From NCBI GenBank assembly GCA_964504265.1, contig CAZDEU010000001.1, positions 4,412 to 68,411 on the forward strand: a DNA stretch of 64,000 nt. Reading direction: 5' to 3'. The notes beneath the pieces were generated by a model. It did not search any database, was not told the origin of the DNA, and saw only the letters and a program-made list of their open reading frames with translations. The translations under genes and the position numbers were made by a program. Positions 12,357 through 62,323 of this stretch are shown here, one piece after another. Positions within the stretch are counted from its first letter, which is position 1, and each line of letters starts with the position of its first letter. The stretch is from an uncultured Bacteroidales bacterium (GTDB lineage Bacteria; Bacteroidota; Bacteroidia; Bacteroidales; JAKIYJ01).

Positions 12357-12399
12357 AAAACATTGTTTCTTTAAGGTTTAAAGTAGCGTTAGTTGACTC
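12357..12399 (-). repeat. 35-nt motif copy e (minus orientation, directly upstream of SD of the 11568..12341 glycosyltransferase)
   Basis: Reverse complement reads GAGTCAACTAACGCTACTTTAAACCTTAAAGAAACAATGTTTT, followed by AAAGGA and ATG. Confidence 0.8.
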
Positions 12400-12405
12400 A
12401 TTACA

Positions 12406-12960
12406 TTATTTATTATCCCTATCATATTGTATATCTTCTTCCTGATTTTCACATACTTTACTATCTGGCCAATCATCAAGATTAAATATCGAATTATAAG
12501 GTGAATTTATTGAGTTCATTGAAGTTGACCATATACCAGATTTTGATGTTGCAGTTGAACTAAATGTTATTTTACCATCTTCGCCTAATGATACACCATC
12601 TCTAAATGCGCATGGTAATAATAACTCGGGTTTATTTGCAACCATTGATTTTAATAATTCAATGTTTTCTTTCCATATTGTTTTTGCTACTGGATTTTCT
12701 TCTGATTGGTTACTGTCATAAAAATATTTTAAGCATTTCGCCGTTACCATATCCGTTGAAATGGTAACTAAAATATCAGGCGTGAAAGGCGTTGAATTAT
12801 CAACTGAGTATAATGGTATTTGATAAAGTTTGTATAATATACCATTGATTAATGCTTCAACTCTTGTAATATAAAAAGTTATCTTATCATCTGGTAATAA
12901 TGCTGATGAACTAAATTTTTTATAGTTATCCCTTACTAATGCTATCGATGTATAACTCAT
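12406..12960 (-). CDS. head-tail connector, DUF1320 / Mu gp36-like
   Basis: N-terminus MSYTSIALVRDNY...RVEALINGILYKLYQIPL matches the DUF1320 pattern as I recall it. Sits directly after the capsid gene. Confidence 0.45.
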   Translation of the reverse strand: MSYTSIALVRDNYKKFSSSALLPDDKITFYITRVEALINGILYKLYQIPLYSVDNSTPFTPDILVTISTDMVTAKCLKYFYDSNQSEENPVAKTIWKENIELLKSMVANKPELLLPCAFRDGVSLGEDGKITFSSTATSKSGIWSTSMNSINSPYNSIFNLDDWPDSKVCENQEEDIQYDRDNK

Positions 12961-12978
12961 TTATTTTCTCCTTTTGAT

Positions 12979-13022
12979 TTTTAAATTATTTTATATAAAA
13001 ATAATTATAAAATAAATTAAAA
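12979..13022. repeat. A/T palindrome P4 (type A)
   Basis: Same core as P3. Ends about 20 nt before ATG 12960. Confidence 0.9.
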
Positions 13023-13032
13023 ATTATAAAAA

Positions 13033-13071
13033 ATAGTGGGCAATGCTAATTAAATTAACACCGCCCACTAT
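13033..13071 (-). terminator. terminator after the major capsid gene
   Basis: ATAGTGGGC / GCCCACTAT stem, followed by TTTTTATAATTTTT on the minus strand. Confidence 0.7.
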
Positions 13072-13096
13072 ATCTGGAGGAACTTATAATGGACAA

Positions 13097-14101
13097 TTAA
13101 AATACTTTAGCATAAACTATTCTATCTGGGAACTGGATAGCTGGCAATCCGTATTGACCTGCTAAAACCTGCGTTGATTTCGGATCTTTTATTTCGATTG
13201 TTTCACCAAATTTTCCAGGGGTCATTGTATATTCATTTGGGCAATCAAAGAATACAGCAGTTGCTTCATTAGGCGATGTTGACGCACCTTTTGTTGCTAT
13301 TGTAATAACATCTCCATCTTCAACTAATCTGTAGTTAGTGCCTGTTGAATCTGTAAACATACCAGAAGCAATTACAAGTTCAACATTGATAGCTGCAAGA
13401 TAAGTTTTAACTTTTGAAATTATATCAACTGTTCCACCGTCAAATTTTAAAACATCCCTTACTTTTGTCGCATTTATCATCTGAATTAAAGTTGTTTTAT
13501 TCATTATAACTTTATCAGCTACTGCGCCGCCATCTTTTTCAATTAAATCTGACCAATTAAAAATATCTGTCAATGGATCAGAATTTACAAGGTCATTCCA
13601 TTTAGCAGTTGAAGTTAAAGTTACTTTATGAGTTGCTTTAAAACCATAATCGATTGAAAATGAAACGCCTGTATCGGTATCAGAGTATGTAAGCGTGCCG
13701 GTTAATGCTTTCATTTTTAACCATTCAACTCTCATATCAACGCCATCATTTACTCTTGATGTATAATCAAGAACCATCTGATTAGCATATTTTTCATTTA
13801 GTGTGCCTGGTTTTCTTAACAAAAGCATATCAGCTGCTTTTATCGGGATTTTATGTTTTATTACTGCGCCTGTTGATTTCATTGTTTTAATATTTTCAGG
13901 CTGGCAAATAGGAGCAACTGAATTCATACCTGTAATTGGAGCCATCGGAAATGACCCATAAATTACATCCCATTGAATATCCATTGTCTGGCTTTCTTTG
14001 CTTGCATATATAGTGTTAGAAAGCATTTCTTTAACTGGGAACTGTTTAATTAGACCGGAAATATACTGTGGATTAAGAACTGAATACAACGAATCTGACA
14101 T
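13097..14101 (-). CDS. major capsid protein (lambda gpE-like size and position)
   Basis: 334 aa, preceded by decoration-like and protease/scaffold genes, followed by GC-containing terminator 13033-13071. Confidence 0.75.
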   Translation of the reverse strand: MSDSLYSVLNPQYISGLIKQFPVKEMLSNTIYASKESQTMDIQWDVIYGSFPMAPITGMNSVAPICQPENIKTMKSTGAVIKHKIPIKAADMLLLRKPGTLNEKYANQMVLDYTSRVNDGVDMRVEWLKMKALTGTLTYSDTDTGVSFSIDYGFKATHKVTLTSTAKWNDLVNSDPLTDIFNWSDLIEKDGGAVADKVIMNKTTLIQMINATKVRDVLKFDGGTVDIISKVKTYLAAINVELVIASGMFTDSTGTNYRLVEDGDVITIATKGASTSPNEATAVFFDCPNEYTMTPGKFGETIEIKDPKSTQVLAGQYGLPAIQFPDRIVYAKVF

Positions 14102-14139
14102 ATATTTACACCTTCCTCATTTATTTTTATATTTTTAAA

Positions 14140-15923: not shown

Positions 15924-15967
15924 GTTTAAATTATTTTATAATTATTTTTATATAAAATAATTTAAAC
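15924..15967. repeat. A/T palindrome P5 (loop type B)
   Basis: GTTTAAATTATTTTATA ATTATTTTTA TATAAAATAATTTAAAC, with perfect arms. Confidence 0.9.
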
Positions 15968-15986
15968 TTTTAAATTATTGATTATT

Positions 15987-16502: not shown

Positions 16503-16573
16503 TTTAATACCATCCTTTTTATTTTTATTTATACTAATATAATAATGGTTTCAATTTTCTTTTTCTAATTTTT

Positions 16574-16900: not shown

Positions 16901-16923
16901 TTTTCATCTTTCCTTTCAAATTT

Positions 16924-16953
16924 CAGGTTTTTAATCAGAACCTGTTAAACTGA
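16924..16953 (-). promoter_or_regulatory. pseudoknot-like leader element, copy 1
   Basis: CAGGTT 16924-29 pairs with AACCTG 16939-44. TCAG 16935-38 pairs with CTGA 16950-53. Confidence 0.6.
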
Positions 16954-16970
16954 ATTTATGATTTTATTAA

Positions 16971-17237: not shown

Positions 17238-17292
17238 ATAATCTCCTTATCTTTTTTATTTTATATTTATATAATAATTTTTTAATTTTTTT

Positions 17293-17661: not shown

Positions 17662-17682
17662 TTTAATATTCCTTTCTTATTT

Positions 17683-17712
17683 CAGGTTTTTGATTGGAAC
17701 CTGTTAAACCAA
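17683..17712 (-). promoter_or_regulatory. pseudoknot-like leader element, copy 2
   Basis: CAGGTT 17683-88 pairs with AACCTG 17698-703. TTGG 17694-97 pairs with CCAA 17709-12. Confidence 0.6.
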
Positions 17713-17721
17713 ATTTATTTG

Positions 17722-17928
17722 TTAACTAATTTCAAATTTTCGTTTATCAACTCTACCTGATGTGATAATCTCTATATCAGGTATTTGAGGAAAATCTGAT
17801 TTTAAACTTTCCCTTATACTTGATATTTCATCTTCATATTCAGTATTAATTACTAAATATTTTGGCTGTCTATTATTTTTATATTTGAACAATGATAATT
17901 GGGTGTATATTTCTTTATTATTTAACAT
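17722..17928 (-). CDS. hypothetical small acidic protein, first gene of promoter cassette A
   Basis: ATG 17928. SD AAGGGG in leader GGGGAAATTAAAATG. About 48 nt downstream of the predicted -10. Confidence 0.5.
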   Translation of the reverse strand: MLNNKEIYTQLSLFKYKNNRQPKYLVINTEYEDEISSIRESLKSDFPQIPDIEIITSGRVDKRKFEIS

Positions 17929-17982
17929 TTTAATTTCCCCTTTTTCTTTTTTTATTTTTATCCCTTAACCCTTTATATTTTT

Positions 17983-18011
17983 ATTATAACATATTATAAT
18001 AAAAATGTAAA
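17983..18011 (-). promoter_or_regulatory. sigma-70-type promoter, cassette A: TTTACA-17 nt-TATAAT with TGn extended -10
   Basis: -35 is the reverse complement of 18006-18011. -10 is the reverse complement of 17983-17988. TGT lies at 17989-17991. Confidence 0.7.
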
Positions 18012-18048
18012 TAGTTTTTATAAAATAATTTAAAATAAAAATAAAAAA

Positions 18049-18075
18049 GCATTGATAACCTTTTATTATCAATGC
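18049..18075. terminator. bidirectional intrinsic terminator, cassette A
   Basis: GCATTGATAA / TTATCAATGC, a 10-bp stem flanked by an A-run and a T-run. Lies just after the nrdG stop. Confidence 0.75.
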
Positions 18076-18095
18076 TTTTCACGGTAAAAATAATT

Positions 18096-18686
18096 TTAAA
18101 ATAAATCTAGTTCTGCTTGAAATTTAATATCTGGAAAGTTTTTTATTATCCAATTTTTATCCTCTACATTTAAACCTTTCCATAAAGTATTTCTAAATTG
18201 ATAATTTATTCCGGACCTGGAAATTATATCAATGCTCCTATATAGATTATCTATATTATTATAATGGAAATATTTTGAATAATTTTCAAATTTAGATTTT
18301 ATATCCATTGCTACAAAATCAATTAATTTATTATCAATAATATTTTTTAATAATTCTGGATTAGTGCCATTAGTGTCAAGTTTTATTTTTTTATTTGTCC
18401 GCTGTTTTAAATAATGTAATAAATATAATAAATCATTTTCTTGTAATGTTGGCTCACCACCACTTATTACAATTCCATTTGCTAAATTAGTTATAACATC
18501 ATAAACGGTATGAATTATTTGTTCTTTTGTGAATATGCCAAATTCTCGCATTGCTTTGCGGTTATGGCAATATTCACAGGTTAAATTGCAACCATTAAAA
18601 AATATTACTGATGATATATAACCTGGATAATCTATTAATGATGATTTTTGAAATCCAAACAATTTAATATTTTGAAAATTATTCAT
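18096..18686 (-). CDS. nrdG: anaerobic ribonucleotide reductase activating protein (radical SAM)
   Basis: CNLTCEYCHN (CxxxCxxC) near the N-terminus. About 196 aa, directly downstream of nrdD. Confidence 0.85.
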   Translation of the reverse strand: MNNFQNIKLFGFQKSSLIDYPGYISSVIFFNGCNLTCEYCHNRKAMREFGIFTKEQIIHTVYDVITNLANGIVISGGEPTLQENDLLYLLHYLKQRTNKKIKLDTNGTNPELLKNIIDNKLIDFVAMDIKSKFENYSKYFHYNNIDNLYRSIDIISRSGINYQFRNTLWKGLNVEDKNWIIKNFPDIKFQAELDLF

Positions 18687-18761: not shown

Positions 18762-20711
18762 TTATTTCGTATTATCTTTTAACCATTTTAAATAAGAACC
18801 TGCACCTGATAATTTACTTATTATTTCACTTCCTTTAACTTTCATTAAACAAGGCAACTCATCAACATTATAATAACTTGCCAATGCTAAACCTTTATAT
18901 TCGTGAGTATCAAGTATTTTTACATTTTCATTTAGCTTTCCTGATAATTGTTTTTTAACTGTTTCGCATTTTTCGCAATTAGGTTTCTGAAAAAATAAAA
19001 TCTGTTCGCCGTTATTGAATTCAACATTTTCAAATTGCTGCATACTGAAATCAACTTTTGTTCTATCTTTTAATTCTGCTAATTTGGATTTTGTCCAACC
19101 TGAAATTTGACTAAAATACCCTGTTATTCTTGTTGTGTTATATATGTTATTAGAGCCGCATGACGGGCATATGTCATTTAAACCTTTAAATGTGTTATGA
19201 CAATCTTTACATACTGTCATATCAGGACTATCCGCTGTTTGAACTGCATTTGTATTTAATAATGTTGTTTTATATAATTCTTTTAATGCTTTTGGGTCTG
19301 GCTCTGTATCCCCAAACCAATTATGAATTATAGAACCTGCCTTTATCATTGAAGCAAATTTACTTTGTTTTTCTATTCTGGTTAATATATCAACATTTGC
19401 ATTATAAACTAAATGAACCGAATTAGTATAATATACTTCGCCTTTTTCTATATTACCGTTGACATAATGTTTTGCTTCTTTGAATTGTTGTAAATCTAAT
19501 AATGCTGCCCTTAAACTTAATCCTTCTGCTGGTGTTTCTTCGAGCATAACATTTAGATTATATTTATTTGCTAATTCATCCATTTTTAGTTTTATATATG
19601 CTATTATTTCTAATCCAAATTTTAAGGTTTCTTCTGTTTCATGTAAATTAGTTTTTGTATATTGTTTTACCAATTCATTTAATCCGATTATCCCTATTAA
19701 AAACTTTGCTTCATTCCTTCTTAAATAAGGTTTATTATCAAAGCCTTTTGTTAAAAAACCTAAACAACCTTTTTCACCTTTATCTAATAATTTACATATG
19801 TATTCATATTTCGTTTTATGTCCTTGCATACATAAATCAATTAATCTATCTATTTCACTATACATTTCTTTATGCGTTTTACATTTATAACCAATTCTTG
19901 GTAAATTTATTGTTATATTCTGCCATGCTGAAAATCGCATTTCCTCTGGCGTTTTTATTAATCTTTCTGTTTCTTCTTTTGTTAAATTTATTGACAATCT
20001 GCAGCATTGAGATATCTTAACATCTTCACCTCTGTCGTAAAGTATATATATTGAACCTCTTTTAGAATTTACTCTGCAAGCAAAATCTAATAGTTCATCA
20101 TCAAAACTATTTTTATTTATATGTAATAATATTTTTGGAAATGCGAAGTTTGCTTTATTTGCATCGCCTTTTTCGATTACTTCAAATATAGCTTTTAAAA
20201 ATAATCTCATTTCATTTTCATATTCGGAATAATTTAATCCTGTATATTTTCCACCTGCTCCTCTTGCTGGTGTATTTTTATAGTGGTCTGGAACTTTTAA
20301 ATACATATTGAAATCACTGAATACAACTTGGCCGCCTCGATTTCCGGCTAACTGTGCAAAGCTAAAAATCAAATGCTGTGCAACCTGTTTAATTTGATAA
20401 TATTCTAAATCTTTTAGTAGTGGTGCGAAAAACATATTAACACATTCAAACCCAATAGCGCCAGAAAATAAACCTTGTAAATAATTTGCAAAACATTGAA
20501 TATGATTAACTAATGTTTGAGCGTGTTTTGCGGGTTCACTATGACTAACATTTGGTAATTTTAAACCATATCTTTTTATATATTCAATAGAATTACCAGA
20601 ACAATTATGCGTATGTATATTATTGACTAATAAAGTATGTGATGATGTTGTAATATCATATACCTTATTAACTGTTTTAATTTTTTTTATTGATATTATT
20701 TTATTTAACAT
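18762..20711 (-). CDS. nrdD: NrdD C-terminal fragment: 36-aa intein C-piece + C-extein + C-terminal redoxin-like domain
   Basis: Starts MLNKIISIKKIKTVNKVYDITTSSHTLLVNNIHTHN|CSGNSIEY (intein block G HN|C). Glycyl-radical motif TRITGYF (Gly codon ~19119-19121). Zn ribbon CKDC...CPSCG. Terminal CEKC thioredoxin-fold-like segment. Confidence 0.85.
   Translation of the reverse strand: MLNKIISIKKIKTVNKVYDITTSSHTLLVNNIHTHNCSGNSIEYIKRYGLKLPNVSHSEPAKHAQTLVNHIQCFANYLQGLFSGAIGFECVNMFFAPLLKDLEYYQIKQVAQHLIFSFAQLAGNRGGQVVFSDFNMYLKVPDHYKNTPARGAGGKYTGLNYSEYENEMRLFLKAIFEVIEKGDANKANFAFPKILLHINKNSFDDELLDFACRVNSKRGSIYILYDRGEDVKISQCCRLSINLTKEETERLIKTPEEMRFSAWQNITINLPRIGYKCKTHKEMYSEIDRLIDLCMQGHKTKYEYICKLLDKGEKGCLGFLTKGFDNKPYLRRNEAKFLIGIIGLNELVKQYTKTNLHETEETLKFGLEIIAYIKLKMDELANKYNLNVMLEETPAEGLSLRAALLDLQQFKEAKHYVNGNIEKGEVYYTNSVHLVYNANVDILTRIEKQSKFASMIKAGSIIHNWFGDTEPDPKALKELYKTTLLNTNAVQTADSPDMTVCKDCHNTFKGLNDICPSCGSNNIYNTTRITGYFSQISGWTKSKLAELKDRTKVDFSMQQFENVEFNNGEQILFFQKPNCEKCETVKKQLSGKLNENVKILDTHEYKGLALASYYNVDELPCLMKVKGSEIISKLSGAGSYLKWLKDNTK
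18765..19040 (-). other. thioredoxin/glutaredoxin-like domain fused to the NrdD C-terminus
   Basis: EQILFFQKPNCEKCETVKKQL, with CxxC codons at 18966-18977. Lies downstream of the glycyl-radical motif. Confidence 0.5.
20604..20711 (-). other. split-intein C fragment (36 aa)
   Basis: VYDITT...LLVNNIHTHN followed by Cys+1. The length is typical of natural split-intein C pieces. Confidence 0.7.
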
Positions 20712-22399: not shown

Positions 22400-22495
22400 T
22401 ATAAAAAACATCCCCTTTAATAAAAAATAAAAAATTGGTATGGTTACCAGCATACCAATTTTAAAAGTTTAAATATATAATTAAAATATTTCTAA

Positions 22496-50366: not shown

Positions 50367-50406
50367 TTTAAGTATTCCTTTATAAATTTTTATTTATATA
50401 ATAAAA

Positions 50407-50444
50407 TACCGCCTAAAAGTTTAATATATAGCTTTTAAGCGGTA
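50407..50444 (-). terminator. terminator after 50476..50871
   Basis: TACCGCCTAAAAG / CTTTTAAGCGGTA (one mismatch), followed by TTTTATTAT. Confidence 0.6.
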
Positions 50445-50475
50445 GTTGTTTTAGTTTATGATATTTTATATATTA

Positions 50476-50871: not shown

Positions 50872-50915
50872 TTTTAAATTCTCCTTTATAATTTTTTATT
50901 TATATAATAAAAACT

Positions 50916-52094: not shown

Positions 52095-52138
52095 TTTTAA
52101 ATTATTTTATATAAAAATAATTATAAAATAAATTAAAC
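52095..52138. repeat. A/T palindrome P19 (type A)
   Basis: Ends 1 nt before the polA stop codon. Confidence 0.9.
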
Positions 52139-52139
52139 T

Positions 52140-54161
52140 TTACTCTTCGATAAAAACTAATTTATCATCTTTTAATTCAACTGGATACATCGAACCCCAT
52201 TCAGTTCCCAATTTGAAATCAATACTCATTGTTATACCTTTTGTGTCGATAAAATCCTTTGGTATATTTTCAAATATATAAGTTGTTGTATCTATATATT
52301 CTTTAACTAATTTTTTTGGCATTTGTGCCAAAATTGAATCGTGAACTGTTCCGACTAATTGAATGTCTAAATTATTTTTATCTATCCAATTTTGTATCCT
52401 ATTTATATTAAAGTTTGCCATATTACCTAATGAACCCTGAATAGGTGCGTTTCCTGCTTGTCTTGATATTTTACCATAATAACCTTTTATGCCATTTTCA
52501 TAAAAAGTTATCATCTGCTCAAAGTGTCTGCGTTGACCGGCTAATGTTTCGCAATATCCATTAGCTAAAGTATCTTTTAAGTTTTTATCTAAATATGCTT
52601 TTACGCCTGAAAATACTTTAAAATATTCATTCATAAATTCTTGACATATATCAACGCTTAAATCAAATTCATCATTCTCGTCCATAACCTTTTTATATAA
52701 ATCAGGTATCTGCATTAAAGTTTCAAATAAGGCATTTGCAGACATTCCATATATTAAACCAAAATTTAAGGTCTTGGCTATTTGCCTTTGCCATTTTTGA
52801 ACATCTTTTATATCTATTTTAAATACCAATGCTGCGGTTTTTTTATGTAAATCTATACCTTGGTTGAATGCTTCTATCATTGCCTTGTCGCCAGATTTAA
52901 TTGCCATAATTTTTAATTCTCCGGTCTTAACATCAAGCTCTATAAATACTTTACCTTTATCGGCAATGAATAAATTTTTAACTATGCTATCTCTTGGTAT
53001 ATTTTGTAAATTTGGATTGCTGCTTGATAATCTTCCTGTTTTTGTTCCTGTAATATTATAACTGCAATGTATTTTACCGTCATCACTTATTGATTCATAT
53101 AAGCCTTTAAGATATGTTGAATATATTTTATATTCTTCTCTAAATTGTAATAATGGTTTTATATATTTATCAATTTTATTTTGATGTTCTGCTTTATCTT
53201 TTATATGTTTTGGTATTTTAGTTAAATCGTCTAAACTATCAAAATCCAATGTTAATTCTTTTATTGTCGGTATAAATTTTTTGCCTGTTTCTTTTGCAAA
53301 AGTTTGTTTTTCTTTACCACCTTTAGTTAAATGAGTTAACTCAAAACCTAATTTTATAAATGCTTCTTTTAGTTGCTCGGTTTCCGTTAATTTTAAATTT
53401 AATAATCTTTTATCGCCTGTTGCTTTTATTATGTCTAATTTATAATTTTCTTGTAATAAGTGTAATCTTTTACTATATTCTTTTTTATATTTTTCAATGT
53501 TTTCAATGTCAATATTCATACCATTATTTTCTAACATCGATAAAGAATATACAAGTTTTATTTTTTCTTTTGTATATACTTTATATAATTTACTATCATT
53601 TTCAATTATTGGATAAAGATGTTGAAATAATAAATCAGTTTTATATACATCTAACATATTATACTGTAATACAGTTGATAATTTTGTTATTTCAAGTTTT
53701 GTATTATCAACCATTGATTTATGCTTTGGTATTTTTAAATAATATTCTGCTTGATAATCTAAATTTAAAGGTATGTTTTCATCATTCAAATGTGTTAGTA
53801 TTATTGTGTCGTGGCTATTTTTAAATATTGATTTGTTGAAATTATAAACTACATACATAAAATTTAAATCAAATTTTACATTATGTCCTACTTTTGTTAT
53901 ATCTATATTTTCTAATATATCTTTTGTTAAATTTATTGTATCCTCTGGTGTATATTCAATTCCTACATCATCATTTTTATTGTAGGCTTTAAACCCATAT
54001 ATACATTCAGGCGTTGAAAATGCTATTGTTATTAGTTTAGCTTCTTTTGAAAATCTATCTAATGTATTCGTTTCAATGTCAAATGCTGTATATTTTTGAT
54101 TTATAATTTTATCATAAGCGTCTTTAAATTCTTGTTTTGTTTTTATAATTTTATATGCCAT
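52140..54161 (-). CDS. polA: family-A DNA polymerase with 3'-5' exonuclease domain
   Basis: Exo motifs FDIETNTL, HNVKFDLNF and YNMLDVYKT. Pol motifs ELDVKTGELKIMA, RQIAKTLNFGLIYGMS and VGTVHDSIL. Start moved to ATG 54161 (SD AAAGGA). Confidence 0.9.
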   Translation of the reverse strand: MAYKIIKTKQEFKDAYDKIINQKYTAFDIETNTLDRFSKEAKLITIAFSTPECIYGFKAYNKNDDVGIEYTPEDTINLTKDILENIDITKVGHNVKFDLNFMYVVYNFNKSIFKNSHDTIILTHLNDENIPLNLDYQAEYYLKIPKHKSMVDNTKLEITKLSTVLQYNMLDVYKTDLLFQHLYPIIENDSKLYKVYTKEKIKLVYSLSMLENNGMNIDIENIEKYKKEYSKRLHLLQENYKLDIIKATGDKRLLNLKLTETEQLKEAFIKLGFELTHLTKGGKEKQTFAKETGKKFIPTIKELTLDFDSLDDLTKIPKHIKDKAEHQNKIDKYIKPLLQFREEYKIYSTYLKGLYESISDDGKIHCSYNITGTKTGRLSSSNPNLQNIPRDSIVKNLFIADKGKVFIELDVKTGELKIMAIKSGDKAMIEAFNQGIDLHKKTAALVFKIDIKDVQKWQRQIAKTLNFGLIYGMSANALFETLMQIPDLYKKVMDENDEFDLSVDICQEFMNEYFKVFSGVKAYLDKNLKDTLANGYCETLAGQRRHFEQMITFYENGIKGYYGKISRQAGNAPIQGSLGNMANFNINRIQNWIDKNNLDIQLVGTVHDSILAQMPKKLVKEYIDTTTYIFENIPKDFIDTKGITMSIDFKLGTEWGSMYPVELKDDKLVFIEE

Positions 54162-54396
54162 TTCTACTATCCTTTCTAATATATTTACTACATATTTTAT
54201 GTTTATAAGTTCTGTGATATAATGAATTATTATTTTCACAATTATATTTACTTTCGCTACAAACAGATGCTTTTAATATTTTATCTATTTTTCGATATTT
54301 GCAGTTGAAGCAATTATAATTATTTTTAGTATTTTTATAACCTCTTAAAATTTCCCATATATACTTAATATATATTATTTTTTGTTCTTCAAACAT
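54151..54396 (-). CDS. small Cys-rich protein
   Basis: 81 aa with SD AAGAGGTG. Contains CFNCKY...CSESKYNC. Confidence 0.4.
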   Translation of the reverse strand: MFEEQKIIYIKYIWEILRGYKNTKNNYNCFNCKYRKIDKILKASVCSESKYNCENNNSLYHRTYKHKICSKYIRKDSRNGI

Positions 54397-54495: not shown

Positions 54496-55158
54496 TTATG
54501 CATTATTAGTAGTTTGTTTCTCTAATTCTTTTCGCAACATGATATCAAACATTTTATGTAATTTGGGTTCAGATTTACTTTTCAACTTCTTACATAAATC
54601 AATGAAATCATAAAACAAATCTTCATCTATTGGAATTGCTAAATCTTCTAATAATATTTCAAACTTCTTATCATCATTTTTTGTCTGCTCATCATATTTA
54701 TTATCAAAACTAGACCAGGTAAAATTAGTTAATTTTACTAAATCTTCAATATCACTTTTACCATGAAAACAGGTCAATGCTAAATCATCAACTGTATATT
54801 TATCTGATAATTCTTTATAAATTTCAGCCAATTTTAATGTATTTGTTTCAAACCTACTTTCATTTAATTCAATACATTTTCTCTTGGCTTCTGATTCTTC
54901 AAGTTTACCGTGATTATAACATAAAACTTTTTTAATATCTGTAATTTGTTTTATTGCTTTTAATCTGTGGTTACCATCAATTACTTCAAATTTATCTTTT
55001 GATATTTCCCGAACATTTAAGTTAACAATTAAACCATTTCTTTTAATGTTATTTACTAATTTATCTATCTGTTTATTAGTTCCATCTTCTTTATAATTCC
55101 ATTCAGCATAAACTAATTTTGATACATCAATTAATTGAAAATTACTATCCATTAACAA
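54496..55158 (-). CDS. ParB/Srx-fold (ParB N-terminal domain-like) protein
   Basis: EVIDGNHRLKAI is the ParB-NTD DGxHR motif. Confidence 0.6.
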   Translation of the reverse strand: MLMDSNFQLIDVSKLVYAEWNYKEDGTNKQIDKLVNNIKRNGLIVNLNVREISKDKFEVIDGNHRLKAIKQITDIKKVLCYNHGKLEESEAKRKCIELNESRFETNTLKLAEIYKELSDKYTVDDLALTCFHGKSDIEDLVKLTNFTWSSFDNKYDEQTKNDDKKFEILLEDLAIPIDEDLFYDFIDLCKKLKSKSEPKLHKMFDIMLRKELEKQTTNNA

Positions 55159-55823
55159 TTACCTCCAAAAATTTTAATTATTTCATTGTTTCTTGAAATA
55201 TCATATTTATTACTTCTTGCCCTATCAAGATAATTTAATTTCAATGTTTCATTTATTTCAAAATCAGGTTCAATATTATTCATTTTAAGGGCTATATATT
55301 TTCTAACACAACTACCGCAATTACCGCATGGTTTATCTAATTTATGATAACATGAAACTGATTCAAATAATAAATTTTTATCATATCCAGAATCTATAAA
55401 CCATTTTATTATATCAGTTTTACTCATCTGCCAAAATGGTGAATCAATTTTAATTCTCGTTCTTGAAAATTTATTTAATATTTCGGTCATATCAGTAAAT
55501 GCTTCTGGATTCTTATCTTCTACCATATCACCTTTTATCCCCGCTATAAATATCTCATCACCATACCAAGAACCAATTAATGCAAGTAACAAATTTCTAT
55601 TTGGAACGAAAGCATTAACATCACTATTATAAAATAAATTTAGATTAGTTATTTCATGAATAGTTAAGTCCATAGATAATTTAGTAGCTATATTTTTTAT
55701 TGATTTAATTTCTTTCTCAGAATATTCTGTATGTAAATCAATATAAATACATTTAGGTTTATCCAAATAAAACCAGGCAATTAATGAATCAATTCCTCCT
55801 GAAAATAAAAGTATTTTTGACAT
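55152..55823 (-). CDS. queC: 7-cyano-7-deazaguanine (preQ0) synthase-like PP-loop ATPase
   Basis: LLFSGGIDS PP-loop, VPNRN, SCY...CGNCGSCVRK zinc cluster. Confidence 0.8.
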   Translation of the reverse strand: MSKILLFSGGIDSLIAWFYLDKPKCIYIDLHTEYSEKEIKSIKNIATKLSMDLTIHEITNLNLFYNSDVNAFVPNRNLLLALIGSWYGDEIFIAGIKGDMVEDKNPEAFTDMTEILNKFSRTRIKIDSPFWQMSKTDIIKWFIDSGYDKNLLFESVSCYHKLDKPCGNCGSCVRKYIALKMNNIEPDFEINETLKLNYLDRARSNKYDISRNNEIIKIFGGNC

Positions 55824-56141
55824 TTAATTATCTCCTTTCATTATTATATCTGACCATGTATCGTTTATATTTATTGCTTTATCATCTATATAATAATCTG
55901 CTAATAACTTATTAAAAATTATTTCATGATACTTTATATTATTATCTGATAACCATGTTATAGTTAAATCTTTATCTTCTATATATCTTGAAGTATAAAT
56001 AATTATTCTAAACCCATTAGTATACAAAGTATTTAATTTATTTATATTATTTATATTTGGTGTACATTTAGAAAATTCTGAATAATGAATTTTAGGTTCA
56101 TTTGTTAAACAACCGTCTAAATCAAAAGCAATAATTTTCAT
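55824..56141 (-). CDS. small HAD-superfamily hydrolase-like protein
   Basis: MKIIAFDLDGCLT is HAD motif I. 105 aa. Confidence 0.5.
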   Translation of the reverse strand: MKIIAFDLDGCLTNEPKIHYSEFSKCTPNINNINKLNTLYTNGFRIIIYTSRYIEDKDLTITWLSDNNIKYHEIIFNKLLADYYIDDKAININDTWSDIIMKGDN

Positions 56142-56144
56142 TAA

Positions 56145-57260
56145 CTACTCCTTTAAAGTATTATCAACATTAATTAACTCATCTATAATATTTATTTGTT
56201 GCGGGCACATTTTCAAACATCTTCCACACTTTTTACAACTTGATGCTTTATCTTGTTTTTCCATTAAACAATTATAACTGAATTTTGAATTATTTACCTC
56301 GTTATATATATTATAATTGTTATATAATGTAAAATTATAAGGAATATTTACACCGCATTTCAATGTTAAACAATACCCGCAATCAGTGCATCTAACTTTC
56401 TTCATTTTTTCAAATTCTTTTTTTATATTATTACATAATTTATAATCATTATCATTAAATGTATATTTATTATTTATAATATCTAAATTATACTTCAATT
56501 GTTGTATATTAGTTAAACCACTTAATAATAATGATACTTCATTAATATTCCAAATATAGTTGAAAGCTAATCTTATTGGGTTATTATTATTTATATTGAA
56601 CATGTTGGTAATATTTTCTGGTAAATTATTAACCAAATAACCACCATGTAATGGTTCCATTATAGCTATATCCATATTTTTAGTTTTTGCATATTTTATA
56701 CCTTCTATTCCGGCCTGAAAATTTATATCCATATAATTATGTTGCACCAAACAAAAATCAAATTTATATGTATCTATGATATGTTTGAATACTTCATTTC
56801 TATCATGAAATGAAAAACCTATATTACTTATCTTTCCTTGTGCTTTTGCTTCTAACATATATTGATATAGATTATTATTTATAACATCATTGAAAGTATA
56901 TTTATTTAGAGCGTGAAATAAATAATAATCTATATGATCTGTATTAAAATTTTTTAATTGTGTTTCTAATATATTAAAAAAATCATTACGGCTATTACAT
57001 AACCACACGGGCAATTTAGTTGAAATAAACATCTTATCGCGTATACTTTTATTTATTGCGCTACCTATAATTTTTTCACTATCATTATTACCATATATAT
57101 AGGCAGTATCAAAATAATTTATACCATTATCTACTGCAAAATTAATGAATTCTGATAATTTATTTTTTGTATCTGGTTGAGTATAATCCCAACGCATTAG
57201 TCCTGCACCGAATATTGAAATATCATTACCGCTAAATTTTTTATAATACATTAAAATCAT
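56145..57260 (-). CDS. aldo/keto reductase fused to a 2x[4Fe-4S] ferredoxin-like C-terminus
   Basis: GINYFDTAYIYGNNDSEKIIG and ISTK are AKR motifs. CTDCGYC and CKKCGRCLKMCP are Fe-S motifs. The start could be M4 (57251). Confidence 0.75.
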   Translation of the reverse strand: MILMYYKKFSGNDISIFGAGLMRWDYTQPDTKNKLSEFINFAVDNGINYFDTAYIYGNNDSEKIIGSAINKSIRDKMFISTKLPVWLCNSRNDFFNILETQLKNFNTDHIDYYLFHALNKYTFNDVINNNLYQYMLEAKAQGKISNIGFSFHDRNEVFKHIIDTYKFDFCLVQHNYMDINFQAGIEGIKYAKTKNMDIAIMEPLHGGYLVNNLPENITNMFNINNNNPIRLAFNYIWNINEVSLLLSGLTNIQQLKYNLDIINNKYTFNDNDYKLCNNIKKEFEKMKKVRCTDCGYCLTLKCGVNIPYNFTLYNNYNIYNEVNNSKFSYNCLMEKQDKASSCKKCGRCLKMCPQQINIIDELINVDNTLKE

Positions 57261-57264
57261 CCCT

Positions 57265-58077
57265 TTAGAATATTATATTTTCTCTTAAACCTTTACAATC
57301 ACTACATTTATTTGGTATTATTATTGGAGAATTATCTATCTCTTCAGTTATATTACCAAGTAAAAAATCATTATTATAACTCTTTCTACAACAAGAATAT
57401 ATATCACCATTATAATTGATAACGCCTAAATAATCTTTAACATAACATAAATCATTATTTGATTTATTATCTTTCCAAAAATTATACAAATCTATATTTT
57501 TATATTGAGGTATATTTTCGGCATACTCTGAACCAAAAAGTGGAATTGTTACAATATCATTACTTATTTCTGAAAAATCATTTATTAATTTCCTTGTTAT
57601 ATTCTCAGAATTATTATTTATTAAAGGTACTTTAATTCTTATATTATTATATCTCTTAATATTTGTTCTTATTATATTTTTCAGATGATTCAAAGCTTTA
57701 TCAATATATATATTTGTTAATTCTGTACTACTTACTGGGTGATATGTTATATTTATAAATTCTGCATTATCTAATAACCACAATATATCTGCTTGACTAT
57801 ATTTTAATATTTGTGTTAAATTAGTGCTTAATCCAAATTTTATGTTATTATTTATTATTTCTTTAAAAAATTCAAAACAATTTGAATTCAATAATGGTTC
57901 TCCACCACCTGATATCGATATATATGGTATGTTATTTTTCTTAATAAATTCTATCGCTCTGACAAATGTAGTCTGAGTCATCATATCTGATTTATTATCT
58001 CGATATTTACGAGTAAAACAATAATAACAATGTAAATTACATACATTACTGAAATGTAGTTCAATTGATTTTATCAA
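57265..58077 (-). CDS. radical SAM protein with Cys-rich (SPASM/twitch-like) C-terminus
   Basis: CNLHCYYC (CxxxCxxC), SGGGEPLL, and C-terminal CC...CSDCKG. Confidence 0.75.
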   Translation of the reverse strand: MIKSIELHFSNVCNLHCYYCFTRKYRDNKSDMMTQTTFVRAIEFIKKNNIPYISISGGGEPLLNSNCFEFFKEIINNNIKFGLSTNLTQILKYSQADILWLLDNAEFINITYHPVSSTELTNIYIDKALNHLKNIIRTNIKRYNNIRIKVPLINNNSENITRKLINDFSEISNDIVTIPLFGSEYAENIPQYKNIDLYNFWKDNKSNNDLCYVKDYLGVINYNGDIYSCCRKSYNNDFLLGNITEEIDNSPIIIPNKCSDCKGLRENIIF

Positions 58078-58874
58078 TGTTTTATACCTCTACTTTCCCA
58101 TAATTTAGTTATTTGTTCAATTCTACTGATATTGAGTTTTGTATCTTTATTATAAACATATATCTGATGTTCAGTATTTCGTCTATCTAAACTACTAATT
58201 GAATCAAATCTTGAAACTCCATATCTAAATATTGACCCAACAGAAGATGAATCACAAGAATAAAAAGGAAAATACTCAAGTACACTATAAGTAGTTTCTC
58301 CAAAACCATGTATCTTCTTATTTATTATCTTCTTATATCGGCCATCACTTAAACAACTCTTGTAAAAATCTTTTCTTGCACTTTTATGATAACTTTTTTC
58401 ACTTGAAGTTCCAATATAATCATAATTATCTAAATAATATTCTAGAAAATCCATTGACTCACCTTGATGAAATACTGGTAAAAACTTTAATTTTGTTATC
58501 TTTTCTAATTCCTTTATATTATCTAATGATTTTTGTGCTGATAATTCTTTATTTCTTGCATTCAAATAATCTAAGTTTGTATACACTATACTTTCACAAT
58601 TTTTTACAAAATTTGTTTTCTGTAACGATAATACAAATTCTGCATATTCATCTAATGATATTGATAAATTTTGAGTATATGCTGAATATGCCCCTGAATC
58701 TACGATTATCGATGGTTTATCTACTTTACTAAAAAATTCCTCAAGATAATCTAATTTATTTTTATAATAAAAATATGAAAATAAATAATTCTTCTGACCA
58801 CTAGTTAGGCCTAATTCATTTATATCTTGACCGCCTTTACATTTAATTATTGTCATTACAGTAAAATACTTCAA
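58074..58874 (-). CDS. dpdA: DpdA-like DNA guanine transglycosylase (TGT superfamily)
   Basis: IIVDSGAYSAY, LPVFHQGES..LEYY, YIGTSS, HGFGET and SCDSSS resemble phage DpdA as I recall it. Start placed at TTG 58874 (SD GGAGG 8 nt upstream). Confidence 0.6.
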   Translation of the reverse strand: MKYFTVMTIIKCKGGQDINELGLTSGQKNYLFSYFYYKNKLDYLEEFFSKVDKPSIIVDSGAYSAYTQNLSISLDEYAEFVLSLQKTNFVKNCESIVYTNLDYLNARNKELSAQKSLDNIKELEKITKLKFLPVFHQGESMDFLEYYLDNYDYIGTSSEKSYHKSARKDFYKSCLSDGRYKKIINKKIHGFGETTYSVLEYFPFYSCDSSSVGSIFRYGVSRFDSISSLDRRNTEHQIYVYNKDTKLNISRIEQITKLWESRGIKH

Positions 58875-58894
58875 AACAAATACCTCCAAATAGA

Positions 58895-59449
58895 TTACAT
58901 TATTTTATGTATCAAATCCAAAAATTCATTCTTGACCTGACTTTCTGAAAATACTCCTCGTATAGCACTAGTTATCATTTTAGTATTATTCTTCTTAACA
59001 CCTCTTGCCGACATGCAATTATGATGCGCCTCAATAACAACCATACAACCTTTCGGTGCTAAATATTTCATTATTGAATCGGCAATATCAGAAGTCATTC
59101 TTTCTTGTATTTGAAGTCTTTTAGCAAAGCAATCTACTAATCTTGCTAATTTACTTACACCAATAACTTTCTTATTTGGTATATAACCAATATGACATAT
59201 TCCATTAAATATCTGTATATGGTGTTCACAATTTGAATTAAAATCAATATCTTTCAATATTATCATTTCATTGTAATTACCATAACTTTCAAATGTTTTT
59301 GATAATATATCTTCTGGTTTCTGTTTATAACCTTCTGTTAATTCTTCCATTGCTTTTATAAATCTCTTAGGCGTTTCTAATAAACCTTCCCTATTAACAT
59401 CTTCACCAAGATATGTTAATATTTCTTTGAATTTATTTTCTACTTCCAT
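58895..59449 (-). CDS. folE: GTP cyclohydrolase I
   Basis: LGEDVNREGLLETPKRF and CEHH motifs. ATG 59449 aligns with typical FolE N-termini. An alternative ATG at 59515 has the better SD (AAAGGAAG) but overlaps queE by 76 nt. Confidence 0.85.
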   Translation of the reverse strand: MEVENKFKEILTYLGEDVNREGLLETPKRFIKAMEELTEGYKQKPEDILSKTFESYGNYNEMIILKDIDFNSNCEHHIQIFNGICHIGYIPNKKVIGVSKLARLVDCFAKRLQIQERMTSDIADSIMKYLAPKGCMVVIEAHHNCMSARGVKKNNTKMITSAIRGVFSESQVKNEFLDLIHKIM

Positions 59450-60027
59450 TCTGCTAATTTGTGAACTTGTGGAATTACTCTCGAGTTTGGTAATATTTTT
59501 TGAATTTCTTGACATTTTAAAAAACTTCCTTTCAGATTTGATTCTGGTTGTAATATTAGAGTAACATTTGATGGTACTTTAAATTTTAATACATCATTAA
59601 CATTATTTTTTTCATTTATAACTATTTTTACTTCTTTTGCAAATTTTAAATTATTAATCACATTTTTATTATAGTTTTTAGGGCTTATTGTTAACCAATC
59701 AATTTCATTATATATACTTTCTGTTCCTGACCCATTAGATTCCATTGAAACTGTATAACCTTTATCTTTTAAATTATTAATTAACTCAATTAAATTATCT
59801 TGTATTACAGGTTCACCGCCTGTTAATATAATATTTTTAGATTCAAATTTATTTTGTATAATATAATTTAAAATTTCTACTGATGTCATTTCTTGATAAT
59901 CTTGATGGTTTGTATCACAAAAAGAACATTTTAAATTACATCCTGAAAATCTTATAAATATACTTAAAATACCTAATTTAAGTCCTTCACCTTGAATTGA
60001 TTGGAATATTTCATTTACTTTAAACAT
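59440..60027 (-). CDS. queE: 7-carboxy-7-deazaguanine synthase (radical SAM)
   Basis: FQSIQGEG, FIRFSGCNLKCSFCDT, and C-terminal IPQVHKL. Confidence 0.85.
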   Translation of the reverse strand: MFKVNEIFQSIQGEGLKLGILSIFIRFSGCNLKCSFCDTNHQDYQEMTSVEILNYIIQNKFESKNIILTGGEPVIQDNLIELINNLKDKGYTVSMESNGSGTESIYNEIDWLTISPKNYNKNVINNLKFAKEVKIVINEKNNVNDVLKFKVPSNVTLILQPESNLKGSFLKCQEIQKILPNSRVIPQVHKLAEWK

Positions 60028-60039
60028 TAACTTTCTCCT

Positions 60040-60402
60040 TTATATATTAATAAAAATGCAAGAACATTCAGGCGATTCAAATAATTCAATATAATTTAAT
60101 TTCAAATCTTTATTTATATCATGTAACTCTTTTGACATTAATTCGTATAAATGCTTAGATAAATTTTCAGCTGTCGGATTAAAATCAACTTTTTCATTTA
60201 AATATTGATGGTCGGGTAATATATTATCAATTATTTTTTTAGCTTCTTTGAAATCTAATAACATACCACAATTATCTAATTTTGTCCCACCTATTGCAAA
60301 AATTACTTCCCATCTATGACCATGTAATCTTGAACAAGCACCTACATAATCATTTAATTTATGGGCTGCGTCAAAATGACTTTTGATTTTTAATTGATAC
60401 AT
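60040..60402 (-). CDS. queD: 6-carboxy-5,6,7,8-tetrahydropterin synthase
   Basis: HFDAAHKL...CSRLHGHRWEV pattern. 120 aa. Confidence 0.85.
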   Translation of the reverse strand: MYQLKIKSHFDAAHKLNDYVGACSRLHGHRWEVIFAIGGTKLDNCGMLLDFKEAKKIIDNILPDHQYLNEKVDFNPTAENLSKHLYELMSKELHDINKDLKLNYIELFESPECSCIFINI

Positions 60403-60414
60403 TTTTAACTCCTT

Positions 60415-60777
60415 TTACTGTATATTTTTTTTATTTCCAGTTATTTTATATTTTTCTGATAAACTAAAACATTCTTTTATAATATCATCATAATATTTCA
60501 TACCTGAAATAAATTGAGCGTCTATAACGCTTAATTTTTTATCATTTATTTGTTTAATTAAATCAGATTTAATTACTTTTGCTATTGTATATTTTTCATC
60601 AATAAAAGATTCCATATTTTCTAAAACATCTCGTTTAAATGATTCTTTTTTAGGTTTCAAATCATATTTTTCTATCAGGTCTTTCAAATCTTTAATATCA
60701 ATACCTAATTCCGCAGATGTCTTATTCAAATCATATTTATATTTAACTAATATATCTTTTAATTCTTGTGGTTTCAT
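60415..60777 (-). CDS. hypothetical protein
   Basis: 120-aa ORF. Confidence 0.4.
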   Translation of the reverse strand: MKPQELKDILVKYKYDLNKTSAELGIDIKDLKDLIEKYDLKPKKESFKRDVLENMESFIDEKYTIAKVIKSDLIKQINDKKLSVIDAQFISGMKYYDDIIKECFSLSEKYKITGNKKNIQ

Positions 60778-60780
60778 ATA

Positions 60781-61638
60781 TTATTCTCCTTTCAATTGCA
60801 TAAAGCAATCTAATAATTGTAATGTTTTAACTGTTTGAATGCTCGTTCTATAATCAGCTGCTGCTAAAATATTGATTTGTTTTGTATTATTTTTTTGTTT
60901 TAATAATTCTTCAAATAGTTTTGAAATTATTACCTTATTATCATATTTATATAATATTTTATCTTCAAATTCTTTTATATCTAATGATAATATTTTGTAA
61001 TTATTTATATTTTCTGCTATTTCAACACCGCTTATTGTTGATTGCAATAAATTAATCGCCTGTCGCATATCGCCGTTTGCATTCTGCGTTATTGCGGATA
61101 TATCTTTTTCTGATAATTCAGTATTTTCTTGTTCAATAATGTATTGTAATCTTTCTTTTACTACATCATCATTTAATTTATCAAATCTATAAATAACACA
61201 CCTTGATTTTATAGGGTCTATAATATTTTCTGAATTTGCACATAATATAAATCTTGCTGTTGATGAAAATGCTTCCATTGGTTTTTTTAAAGCATCTTGA
61301 GCATTTGCTGTAATGCGGTCGCACTCGTCGAGCATTATTATTCTTGGAAAGTTAGAATTTATTGATTTTTTACTTGCGAAATCTTTAACTTTTGTTCTGA
61401 TTATTTCTATACCGTTTTCATCACTTGAATTTATTTCTAAAAAATTTGACTTGTAATCTTCTTTAAATAAATATTTTATAAATAATTGTGCTAATGTTGT
61501 TTTACCACAACCAGCAGGGCCAATAAATAGTAAATTAGGTATATTTTTTGATTTTTTAAAATTAATTAATGATTCTATTATATTATCTCTACCTATAACC
61601 TCTGCTAATGTTTTTGGCCTATATTTTTCACTTAACAT
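60781..61638 (-). CDS. RFC small-subunit-like AAA+ clamp loader
   Basis: KYRPKTLAEVIG, GPAGCGKTT (Walker A), MLDECD (Walker B), KSRC (SRC motif). Confidence 0.85.
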   Translation of the reverse strand: MLSEKYRPKTLAEVIGRDNIIESLINFKKSKNIPNLLFIGPAGCGKTTLAQLFIKYLFKEDYKSNFLEINSSDENGIEIIRTKVKDFASKKSINSNFPRIIMLDECDRITANAQDALKKPMEAFSSTARFILCANSENIIDPIKSRCVIYRFDKLNDDVVKERLQYIIEQENTELSEKDISAITQNANGDMRQAINLLQSTISGVEIAENINNYKILSLDIKEFEDKILYKYDNKVIISKLFEELLKQKNNTKQINILAAADYRTSIQTVKTLQLLDCFMQLKGE

Positions 61639-61664
61639 ATTTTAAATATATCCTTTCAATTTAT

Positions 61665-61708
61665 TTTTAAATTATTTTATAATTATTTTTATATAAAATA
61701 AATTAAAC
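61665..61708. repeat. A/T palindrome P20 (type B)
   Basis: The right arm contains the stop codon of 61703..62272. Confidence 0.9.
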
Positions 61709-62272
61709 TTCTTTTTTAAATCGATATTTACCTAAAAATTGCCATATATTATAAGGCTTTTTTTCTGGTTTCATATTTGATAATAAAACATTTAGATATT
61801 TACTATTACATTTATAAAGCATATTATCAATATTATTTATTATTTCTAAATTTTCATCACAAAATTTATTATAACAACCGTAAAACCATTTTAAAATGCT
61901 TTCATATGCAATATTCTCATTATTTAATATATTTAATACTTTTGCCCTATCTTTTTCAAATAATATCATTTCAATGATTTTCATATAATCGATATTATTT
62001 GATTTGTCGATTAACTCAATTTTATCTTTGAAATCTTTGTAGTATTCTGGTAATTTGTCAAATACCAATATTATTGGATTATTTGCATTTAATATTATCT
62101 GCTTTATATCGTTTGCCCGTAAACCTAATTCTTTAACATTAACTACATATGTTTTGCCTTCAATATTTTTGTTTATCATTGAATTTATATCTTTTGTATC
62201 TAATACAATATAGTCCTTATAATCAATTTTTAAATCTCCAATATAAAAGCATATTATTTTTTCTTTTGCCAT
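61703..62272 (-). CDS. hypothetical protein (possible clamp-loader accessory subunit, position only)
   Basis: 189 aa between the clamp and the clamp loader. Confidence 0.3.
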   Translation of the reverse strand: MAKEKIICFYIGDLKIDYKDYIVLDTKDINSMINKNIEGKTYVVNVKELGLRANDIKQIILNANNPIILVFDKLPEYYKDFKDKIELIDKSNNIDYMKIIEMILFEKDRAKVLNILNNENIAYESILKWFYGCYNKFCDENLEIINNIDNMLYKCNSKYLNVLLSNMKPEKKPYNIWQFLGKYRFKKEV

Positions 62273-62285
62273 TTATTATCCCACC

Positions 62286-62323
62286 TTAAAACATAGTTTA
62301 TTTTAAGTTTAAGATAGGATAAT
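62286..62323 (-). repeat. 35-nt motif copy d (minus orientation, directly upstream of SD of 61703..62272)
   Basis: Reverse complement reads ATTATCCTATCTTAAACTTAAAATAAACTATGTTTTAA, followed by GGTGGG and ATG. Confidence 0.8.

Follow-up and report, generated by a model that had tools for sequence, protein, structure and literature searches.

A 36-nt intergenic motif that leads two genes and faces against all genes at three gene-less loci of an uncultured tailed phage

What does a repeated intergenic motif do if some of its copies stand directly before genes and others point against every gene around them? The question is raised by a 64-kb stretch of an uncultured tailed phage (contig CAZDEU010000001.1 of assembly GCA_964504265.1, positions 4,412 to 68,411), hereafter the window, meaning the whole of the DNA that was analysed. 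It is 76% A+T (~24% G+C), all of its credible genes are on the minus strand, and it holds a 36-nt motif with two copies in the gene direction (m1 and m2) and three in reverse (a, b and c). The motif matches no known sequence family, and its reverse, gene-less copies beside terminators are the unusual feature. From sequence alone, we tentatively favour a directional, lineage-specific promoter/5′-leader cassette that would head small transcription units, and we weigh this against a protein-binding site in DNA, a functionless leftover and several less probable readings. The window covers 64 kb of a 105-kb genome, and genome-level negatives hold for those 64 kb.

Results

Direct reading of the loci confirmed the five copies listed in a first-pass annotation of this DNA, with their places and orientations, and gave an asymmetric motif of fixed length, which reads AAC-CCTAYC-TTAAAC-YTWAAAK-AAAC-N-ATG-TTTTAA without gaps. 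A C that had been taken as optional is not an indel, given that the variants CCTTAAAG and CTTAAAAT are three substitutions apart in an alignment judged by eye; in both, TAAAC/RAAAC direct repeats lie 11 nt apart. Four copies are full and one, copy b, is split by an insertion, reported before and now placed inside the motif with a length of 13 nt. The count of five stands for these, but a sixth, partial and inverted copy (TTACCCTATCTTTAAAAG) lies beside m2. A profile built from four copies returned those four with E values of 1e-7 to 1e-5, strong matches to a profile made from these very copies, and copy b weakly. The same search found no further full copy in the 64 kb. A run of 28 bases is identical between m2 and c. 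In 60 Markov simulations of the window the longest exact repeats reached only 18–22 nt, less than this identity in every case, and the motif is hence real.

Both copies in the gene direction are placed in the same way relative to a start codon. Copy m1 (AACGCTACTTTAAACCTTAAAGAAACAATGTTTTAA; 12355–12390, minus) occupies a 64-nt spacer between ORF184 and the glycosyltransferase-like ORF257 (ORF, open reading frame), and its TTTTAA is followed by 13 nt that include a Shine-Dalgarno sequence (SD; AAAGGA) and then by the ATG at 12341. Copy m2 (TATCCTATCTTAAACTTAAAATAAACTATGTTTTAA; 62286–62321, minus) stands before ORF189 (61703–62272), after which comes the clamp-loader gene, and its TTTTAA is likewise followed by 13 nt with an SD (AAGGTGGG) and the ATG of ORF189. 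This TTTTAA-N13-ATG geometry is common to m1, m2 and the m1 copy of a close relative (locus L044). The partial copy (62350–62375, plus; match ~62354–62371) corresponds to the 5′ block of the motif and is head-to-head with m2.

The remaining copies are on the plus strand. Copy a (AACCCTATCTTAAACCTTAAAGAAACTATGTTATCG; 25067–25102) is antisense to all genes, copy b (AAC-CTACC-TTTAAACCTTA[TCTAATAAGTTTT]TAAGCTATGTTTAAA; 41552–41598) is the degenerate one with the insertion, and copy c (AACCCTACCTTAAACTTAAAATAAACTATGTTTTAA; 42161–42196) is also present on two Logan contigs of the same phage (L002 and L003). Together with the partial copy, these three, full or degenerate, are oriented against all genes. 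Copy c has an ATG at the same 13-nt distance after TTTTAA, with no SD, and this ATG opens an ORF of 12 codons only. The earlier statement that no credible plus-strand gene exists here stands: the gaps that hold the plus copies contain no plus-strand ORF of at least 25–30 aa, Rfam gave no match with the whole window at the gathering threshold or with both gaps at E ≤ 1, and ARAGORN found no tRNA or tmRNA. Next to copy a, the likeliest start of the dUTPase ORF (24350–25006) is an internal ATG at 24955 (201 aa, SD AAGGAGA) and not 25006; a protein collection lists the gene product in the 201-aa form, and with this start the non-coding gap around copy a is ~540 nt.

The motif is confined to one narrow clade. 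Profile re-scoring of all fetched loci placed it solely in same-phage contigs and in L044, L108 and L109. Scans of IMG/VR with two patterns, of a metagenome collection and of 185,579 species genomes gave single chance hits, mostly in coding sequence. In a phage database, megablast of 40–45 kb had no match and blastn of the motif gave only partial hits in coding sequence at E ~1. Its absence from related genomes at equivalent sites had been named in the first-pass annotation as an outcome that would refute its inference; the motif is indeed absent from relatives at 60–80% protein identity, but it is present in a relative that is 94% identical.

This close relative, from SRR19543051 and SRR19543047, has coding DNA ~94% identical to that of the window and a third-codon-position divergence of 11–28% (241/1502 or 16% when pooled). 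Copies m1 and a and the beginning of m2 are found there at matching sites and with matching orientations. In L044, m1 has 3 changes in 36 positions and an unchanged SD part, and the 18 nt just upstream are ~50% different. Copy a in L108 and L109 has the same antisense orientation and 1 change in 36. L107 keeps the m2 spacer with the inverted partial copy and the start of the motif; the contig stops within the motif, a break of the kind that repeats are expected to cause in assembly. Taken together, 5 of 86 motif positions differ (P = 0.004 against 16%). A longer non-coding block around copy a (25028–25182), made up of the diverged palindrome with promoter-like hexamers described below, the motif, a 17-nt spacer, a hairpin and 30 more nt, matches L108 at 150 of 155 positions, compared with third positions that diverge by 11.5% in ORF519 next to it (binomial P = 2e-4). 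Neither hexamer of the flank is changed in L108, where the three substitutions of the flank affect the spacer and the discriminator. The surroundings are far less stable: on one side of the block the window has 305 extra nt (25194–25498), on the other the sequence is replaced, and in L106 a different gene precedes the dUTPase. Where L044 and the window part, the breakpoints coincide with a palindrome (~12972) and with the glycosyltransferase gene end and do not fall on the motif. Selection therefore keeps the motif and the unit around a while their surroundings turn over, which argues against functionless relics; purifying selection acts on the motif in both orientations.

Two further segments set these phages apart. 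The 305-nt segment, absent from L108, shares the terminator at 25120–25152. It holds a minus-strand TTGACA-17-TACAAT (25409–25437) and a foldable stretch richer in G+C, with no ORF, and could be either a mobile insert or a small transcription unit that encodes no protein. In L044, the glycosyltransferase gene is separated by a 72-nt spacer (1842–1913) from the tail-completion gene, whereas in the window the two overlap; the spacer has ATAAACTTTTATAAATTTATTAGGRCGG in common with L028 459–516, the spacer that precedes the homologue of ORF189 in a third phage, and this type of cassette is absent from the window.

In the relatives at 60–80% protein identity the equivalent sites are built differently. 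The ORF184 and ORF257 orthologues of L004, L006 and L045–L049 (63–64% identical) abut with no spacer, so that m1 with its own SD is a 64-nt insertion. L028, with an ORF189 homologue 72% identical, has a different spacer at the m2 site. The portal/MuF junction spans 948 gene-less nt in the window (41395–42342), with two terminators, two motif copies, promoter-like sites and palindromes, versus ~50 nt in L001 (11516–11565; portal 64% identical). In L110 the junction (2614–4111) holds a 59-aa ORF and a 348-aa HNH/AP2-like ORF; a search of the window gap with the HNH-like protein of L110 found no decayed homing-endonuclease gene.

Every plus copy is followed by a strong hairpin within 17–41 nt. 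The hairpin 17 nt past copy a (25120–25152) has a 15-bp stem with two G·U pairs in the plus sense and a 10–12-bp stem followed by TTTTTGTTT in the minus sense, with full pairing in the plus sense only. Hairpin T2 (41640–41686), 41 nt past copy b, has T-runs on both strands and looks bidirectional, and hairpin T1 (42234–42272), of the same family, is 37 nt past copy c and lies 70 nt beyond the stop codon of the portal gene. All three hairpins of the first-pass annotation are therefore present, but the family has two more members (~43995–44037 and ~44780–44822) that have no motif nearby, come after a palindrome and end minus-strand units. Hence, the hairpins after b and c are primarily terminators of the gene strand, and 'motif then hairpin' is true as an observation. 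Looked at in the gene direction, a terminator precedes every reversed copy and the next promoter-like site follows it. With a terminator directly upstream of each of these copies, minus-sense transcripts are unlikely to act as antisense RNAs. The G·U asymmetry of the hairpins was tried as an indicator of strand and dropped, given mixed signals across the family.

Upstream, a and b have ~30 nt in common, as had been seen before, and this flank is a diverged copy of the A/T palindrome that the genome carries ~20 times. The flank of a contains TTGTTA-16-TAAAAT (25035–25062, plus), which matches the promoter consensus at 9 of 12 positions, and that of b (41515–41551, plus; homologous to the a flank at 25030–25066) contains ATGTCA-17-TAAACT (8/12). 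These hexamers end 6 nt before the CC(C)TAYC core, and the implied +1 is the AAC that opens the motif. The b flank is back-to-back with a minus-strand TTGACA-17-AATGAT (41497–41525), and copy b is 26 nt from its TTGACA (41525–41520). The 5′ end of copy c adjoins the −35 of a minus-strand TTGACA-16-TATAGT (42135–42162; TTGACA at 42162–42157). The sigma-70-like promoters near the plus copies score 10–11/12. A 9-nt match of the a/b flank to a T3 promoter (ATTAACCCT) is found in none of m1, m2 and c, and was treated as chance.

The palindrome itself, 44 nt long and of A and T only (GTTTAAATTATTTTATATAAAAATAATTATAAAATAAATTAAAC), is found at ~20 sites in most of the longer intergenic spacers, for example at 10586–10629, 12980–13023, 15925–15968, 30326–30369, 41397–41440, 42054–42097, 52096–52139 and 61666–61709. 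Typically, a stop codon is followed by the palindrome, ~10 nt and an SD. Each lineage has its own palindrome at equivalent places (TTTATTAAAATATTTTAATAAA in L001, AAATTTATTATAATTATTTAATAAAAT in L006). It may be an RNA hairpin, a weak terminator or a protein site, and it is where recombination breakpoints versus L044 and contig ends of the Logan assemblies are located. Other intergenic signals are also repeated. Three 160-nt composites on the minus strand (17943–18104, 27727–27888 and 47496–47657), 86–100% identical, join a terminator hairpin to a near-consensus promoter, TTTACA-17-TGTTATAAT, the core of which is also found in L001 and L006. A TTATTATATAAATAAAAA box lies ~25 nt before at least 8 start codons (sites include 63170–63210, 50872–50915, 50367–50475, 31337–31362, 17238–17292, 16503–16573 and ~24960–25000), is also present in L001 and resembles a −10-only class of promoter (T4-late-like TATAAATA). 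A fourth intergenic repeat family (16923–16968, 17682–17727, 27083–27128 and 47162–47207; TTTAACAGGTTCYRATYAAAAACCTGA in the gene direction) is a small G+C-containing hairpin directly before the SD, and a CAGGTT...AACCTG hairpin family is a further signal of this kind.

The phage is one of a group with genomes of ~100 kb and 24% G+C, several members of which come from anaerobic digester and sludge metagenomes. No close phage was found in GenBank, where the best portal identity is ~34%; proteins identical to those of the window are on record from a 105,281-bp NCBI contig and from the Logan assemblies of SRR11845627 and SRR11845629. Genes of the window, all on the minus strand, encode a tape-measure protein (3148–8493), the major head protein (13097–14101), a MuF and ankyrin-repeat protein of 3343 aa (31363–41394), a Mu-type portal (42343–43869), a family-A DNA polymerase (52140–54239) and the clamp loader (60781–61638), together with a split anaerobic ribonucleotide reductase, a dUTPase and a 7-deazaguanine synthesis set. 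The giant protein has an N-terminal MuF (head-morphogenesis) domain, ~2000 aa with no match and C-terminal ankyrin repeats, whereas the MuF protein of L110 has just 552 aa. The reductase NrdD (18762–22453) is divided into an N-terminal ORF (21557–22453) and a C-terminal ORF with a thioredoxin-like tail (18762–20711), between which lies a 296-aa ORF with no assignment (20701–21591); a single 791-aa ORF upstream of the head genes of L006 may be the unsplit counterpart. The 7-deazaguanine DNA modification genes (54496–60402) comprise a GTP cyclohydrolase, a QueD-like PTPS, QueE-like radical-SAM proteins, QueC, a TGT/DpdA-like transglycosylase and a ParB-like protein.

Discussion

We tentatively read the motif as a directional promoter/5′-leader cassette that is specific to its lineage and heads small transcription units. 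The reading draws on the significance of the motif and its constraint, the TTTTAA-N13-ATG geometry, the insertion of m1 together with an SD, the flank hexamers and the hairpins past the plus copies. The motif would serve as a promoter-proximal element, make up the first 36 nt of an RNA, or do both. In the gene direction it would supply a leader that ends 13 nt before the ATG and has its own SD: the m1 cassette would have been inserted between two structural genes that abut in relatives, and the m2 cassette would head ORF189 and the clamp-loader gene. Each reverse copy faces, at a distance of 17–41 nt, the back of a hairpin with which a minus-strand unit ends, and at a and b the palindrome-derived hexamers would start transcription at the AAC. 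The predicted products are gene-less plus-strand RNAs of ~60–130 nt, with the same head as the two mRNA leaders and a hairpin end; copy c may have kept the ATG at leader distance and lost the SD. A putative factor specific to the phage lineage would recognise the motif as DNA or as the 5′ end of an RNA. The 5′ end would be at AAC if the motif is a leader and near ATGTTTTAA if it is a promoter, two versions that are inseparable within this reading. Sequence establishes the motif with its fixed length, its constraint, its occurrence in one narrow clade and its placement relative to SDs, hairpins and hexamers; that the motif is transcribed, in which direction, between which start and stop points and with which binder, we infer.

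Several observations weigh against such a cassette. Searches with Pfam, PHROGs, PDB sequences and the DxDxD pattern found no RNA polymerase or sigma factor in the window, and the 3343-aa MuF/ankyrin protein, considered as a hidden virion RNA polymerase, has neither DxDxD nor a match among PDB sequences. In itself, the motif is no promoter of sigma-70 type: the closest fit by eye, CCTAYC-17/18-TATGTT, puts the +1 inside the SD of m1 and m2, and none of the sites listed by promoter scans consists of the motif. The flank hexamers, at 8–9/12, are as frequent as expected by chance (16 found versus 15.3 in shuffles), and copy c is without the a/b flank. The hairpin family of b and c terminates minus-strand genes elsewhere with no motif, and two of the three hairpins have no good U-run in the plus sense. 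Finally, the motif leads just 2 of ~70 genes. Of the three explanations offered in the first-pass annotation, the promoter or leader nevertheless survives as the best, through the constraint, the 13-nt spacing and the hexamers of a and b; what counts against it is the lack of a polymerase or sigma factor in the window, a motif that is not of sigma-70 type and hairpins that belong to a minus-strand terminator family.

The main rival, which we consider rather unlikely, is an operator, that is, a DNA site at which a regulatory protein of the lineage binds regardless of orientation. Copies a, b and c would then be at +1 to +36 of weak plus-strand promoters and also at or near the −35 of minus-strand sigma-70-like promoters, and the inverted half-sites AAGATAGGG ... 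CCTATCTT at m2 would form a stronger site before ORF189. An operator would account for primary sequence that is conserved in both orientations with no RNA covariation, for copies close to promoters scoring 10–11/12 (c abuts TTGACA and b is 26 nt away), for the inverted partial copy kept in L107 and for the direct repeats 11 nt apart in both variants, and the restriction to one lineage parallels that of the lineage-specific palindromes. However, a contiguous asymmetric site of 36 bp is unusually long, m1 has no promoter nearby to control, and no DNA-binding protein was identified. In addition, the spacer and hairpin past copy a are as conserved as the motif, and a bare operator needs neither. 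The copies might instead be selfish or leftover cassettes with no function, produced by recombination, for example the promoter/leader and terminator stubs of lost plus-strand morons, or inverted duplications mediated by hairpins. Intergenic turnover is fast (the m1 spacer is absent at ~65% protein identity, L044 has a 72-nt cassette, a 305-nt indel borders a and the portal/MuF junction is variable), copy c has a vestigial ATG at the right distance with the SD lost, and an insertion disrupts copy b. Yet we find this improbable, and disfavour the relics of recombination that had been proposed earlier: a and m1 diverge well below the neutral rate even though the sequence next to them has been replaced or lost between this pair of phages, with the motif and the a block changing 3–5 times less than third codon positions. 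Moreover, similarity stops sharply at the motif borders with no decay, no terminal inverted repeats or target duplications were seen, and no remnant of the HNH-like gene of L110 is detectable in the gap. A miniature inverted-repeat transposable element was considered separately and rejected, as the m1 insertion and the borders of block a show, by eye, neither terminal inverted repeats nor a target-site duplication.

A cis-acting RNA structure, in which the motif folds in the mRNA, hides the SD and controls translation, is very unlikely. It is suggested by m2, which has two strong, mutually exclusive hairpins: one sequesters the SD and uses G·U pairs, in the mRNA sense only (19 bp, −18.6 kcal/mol, z −5.45), and the other pairs the partial inverted copy with the 5′ part of m2 (17-bp stem, −30.5 kcal/mol, z −5.1). 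However, m2 alone folds significantly. Copy m1 folds no better than shuffles (z +0.74 in the window, +0.19 in L044), copy a is without the 3′ arm, and covariation gives no support to a hairpin inside the motif: in the helix, 77.1% of cells pair versus 75.7% in shuffles, 165 of 500 shuffles are at least as good, and there is one compensatory pair. The plus-strand copies would also be left unexplained. Iterons or packaging sites, the remaining earlier proposal, would mark a replication origin or pac region, for which the very A+T-rich 360-nt non-coding stretch flanked by b and c beside the portal gene might speak. We reject it as scarcely credible, because the copies are 0.6–20 kb apart and in both orientations (only b and c, 610 bp apart, are close, with the others 12–20 kb away), two are inside operons right before an SD, relatives have none at equivalent sites, the whole b/c gap is missing in L001 and hence dispensable there, and the cumulative GC skew has no turn. 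In their 36-nt length and their order of promoter, unit and hairpin, copies a, b and c are similar to the solitary repeat units of RNA anti-CRISPRs (Racr; PMC10651486), as which the plus copies would combine a promoter, a 36-nt repeat-like RNA and a terminator and titrate host Cas proteins. This is a far-fetched option: no array with the 20 fixed bases of the pattern occurs in 185,579 species genomes or the metagenome collection, which gave single chance hits only, although diverged repeats would escape such a scan; the motif is without a repeat-like hairpin, and m1 and m2 are mRNA leaders. By subfamily, m1 goes with a and m2 with c, in both cases a minus copy with a plus copy; the idea that these are antisense partners was dropped, as such a split is expected by chance in 4 of 6 cases.

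If the favoured promoter/leader cassette is taken one step further, the plus copies would be small-RNA genes whose first 36 nt duplicate the translation-initiation leaders of the glycosyltransferase/tail and ORF189/clamp-loader operons, which we regard as improbable. Through a C-rich, anti-SD-like 5′ block (CCCUAYCUU), they would act as decoys that titrate a leader-binding factor or as SD-targeting regulators, and in both cases would form a circuit of leader-mimic RNAs. Should the motif head real transcription units, the phage would have a small lineage-specific regulon on top of host-type promoters, with two mRNAs and three gene-less antisense RNAs, and m1 would be a clean case of a regulatory cassette with its own ribosome-binding site inserted between previously coupled structural genes. 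If the motif is an operator or a leftover only, the finding is an ordinary one. This phage group rebuilds its intergenic signals fast, with a palindrome of its own in each lineage and with gain and loss of cassettes, and is a good system for studying the evolution of regulatory DNA.

Some features of the motif are known from other phages. Promoters of the T7, T3 and SP6 type are ~23 nt or more, asymmetric, nearly invariant, lineage-specific and present in a few to a few dozen copies; in T7, phiOL and phiOR are copies that drive no gene, and all T7 promoters point with the genes. The motif is similarly long, asymmetric, nearly invariant and lineage-specific, with some gene-less copies, but no gene for a single-subunit RNA polymerase was found in the 64 kb, not all copies are co-oriented with genes, and the +1 purine and leader geometry expected of such promoters are putative here. 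The oop RNA of lambda is an antisense RNA of ~80 nt from a reverse promoter in a one-directional gene block; it has a hairpin end, comes from a single locus and overlaps the 3′ end of a coding gene. Here, too, candidate promoters are reversed in a one-directional block and short hairpin-ended RNAs are predicted, but there are three loci, they are in non-coding DNA, and the head sequence is in common with two mRNA leaders. AgvB of enterohaemorrhagic Escherichia coli prophages is a target-mimic 'anti-sRNA' sponge. A putative small phage RNA with the sequence of an mRNA regulatory region could likewise compete for a common binder, although here RNAs and binder are putative.

The nearest described kind would be the composite promoter/terminator cassette of the PeSL type. 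PeSLs of T4-type phages are short, conserved and repeated intergenic cassettes of a promoter and a stem-loop, linked to indels and replacements between very close relatives, and they are co-oriented with genes and have a recognisable sigma-70 early promoter (PMC2839356, PMC4122927). The motif loci resemble them as short, conserved, repeated composites of a promoter-like element and a stem-loop, and may share the link to indels or replacements: block a is bordered by the 305-nt indel and by replaced sequence, and m1 is itself an insertion. Unlike PeSLs, the motif is not sigma-70-like, all genes run opposite to three of its five copies, and none of the recombination breakpoints seen falls exactly at it. 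The description of PeSLs is better matched by the three 160-nt terminator/promoter composites together with the palindromes than by the motif.

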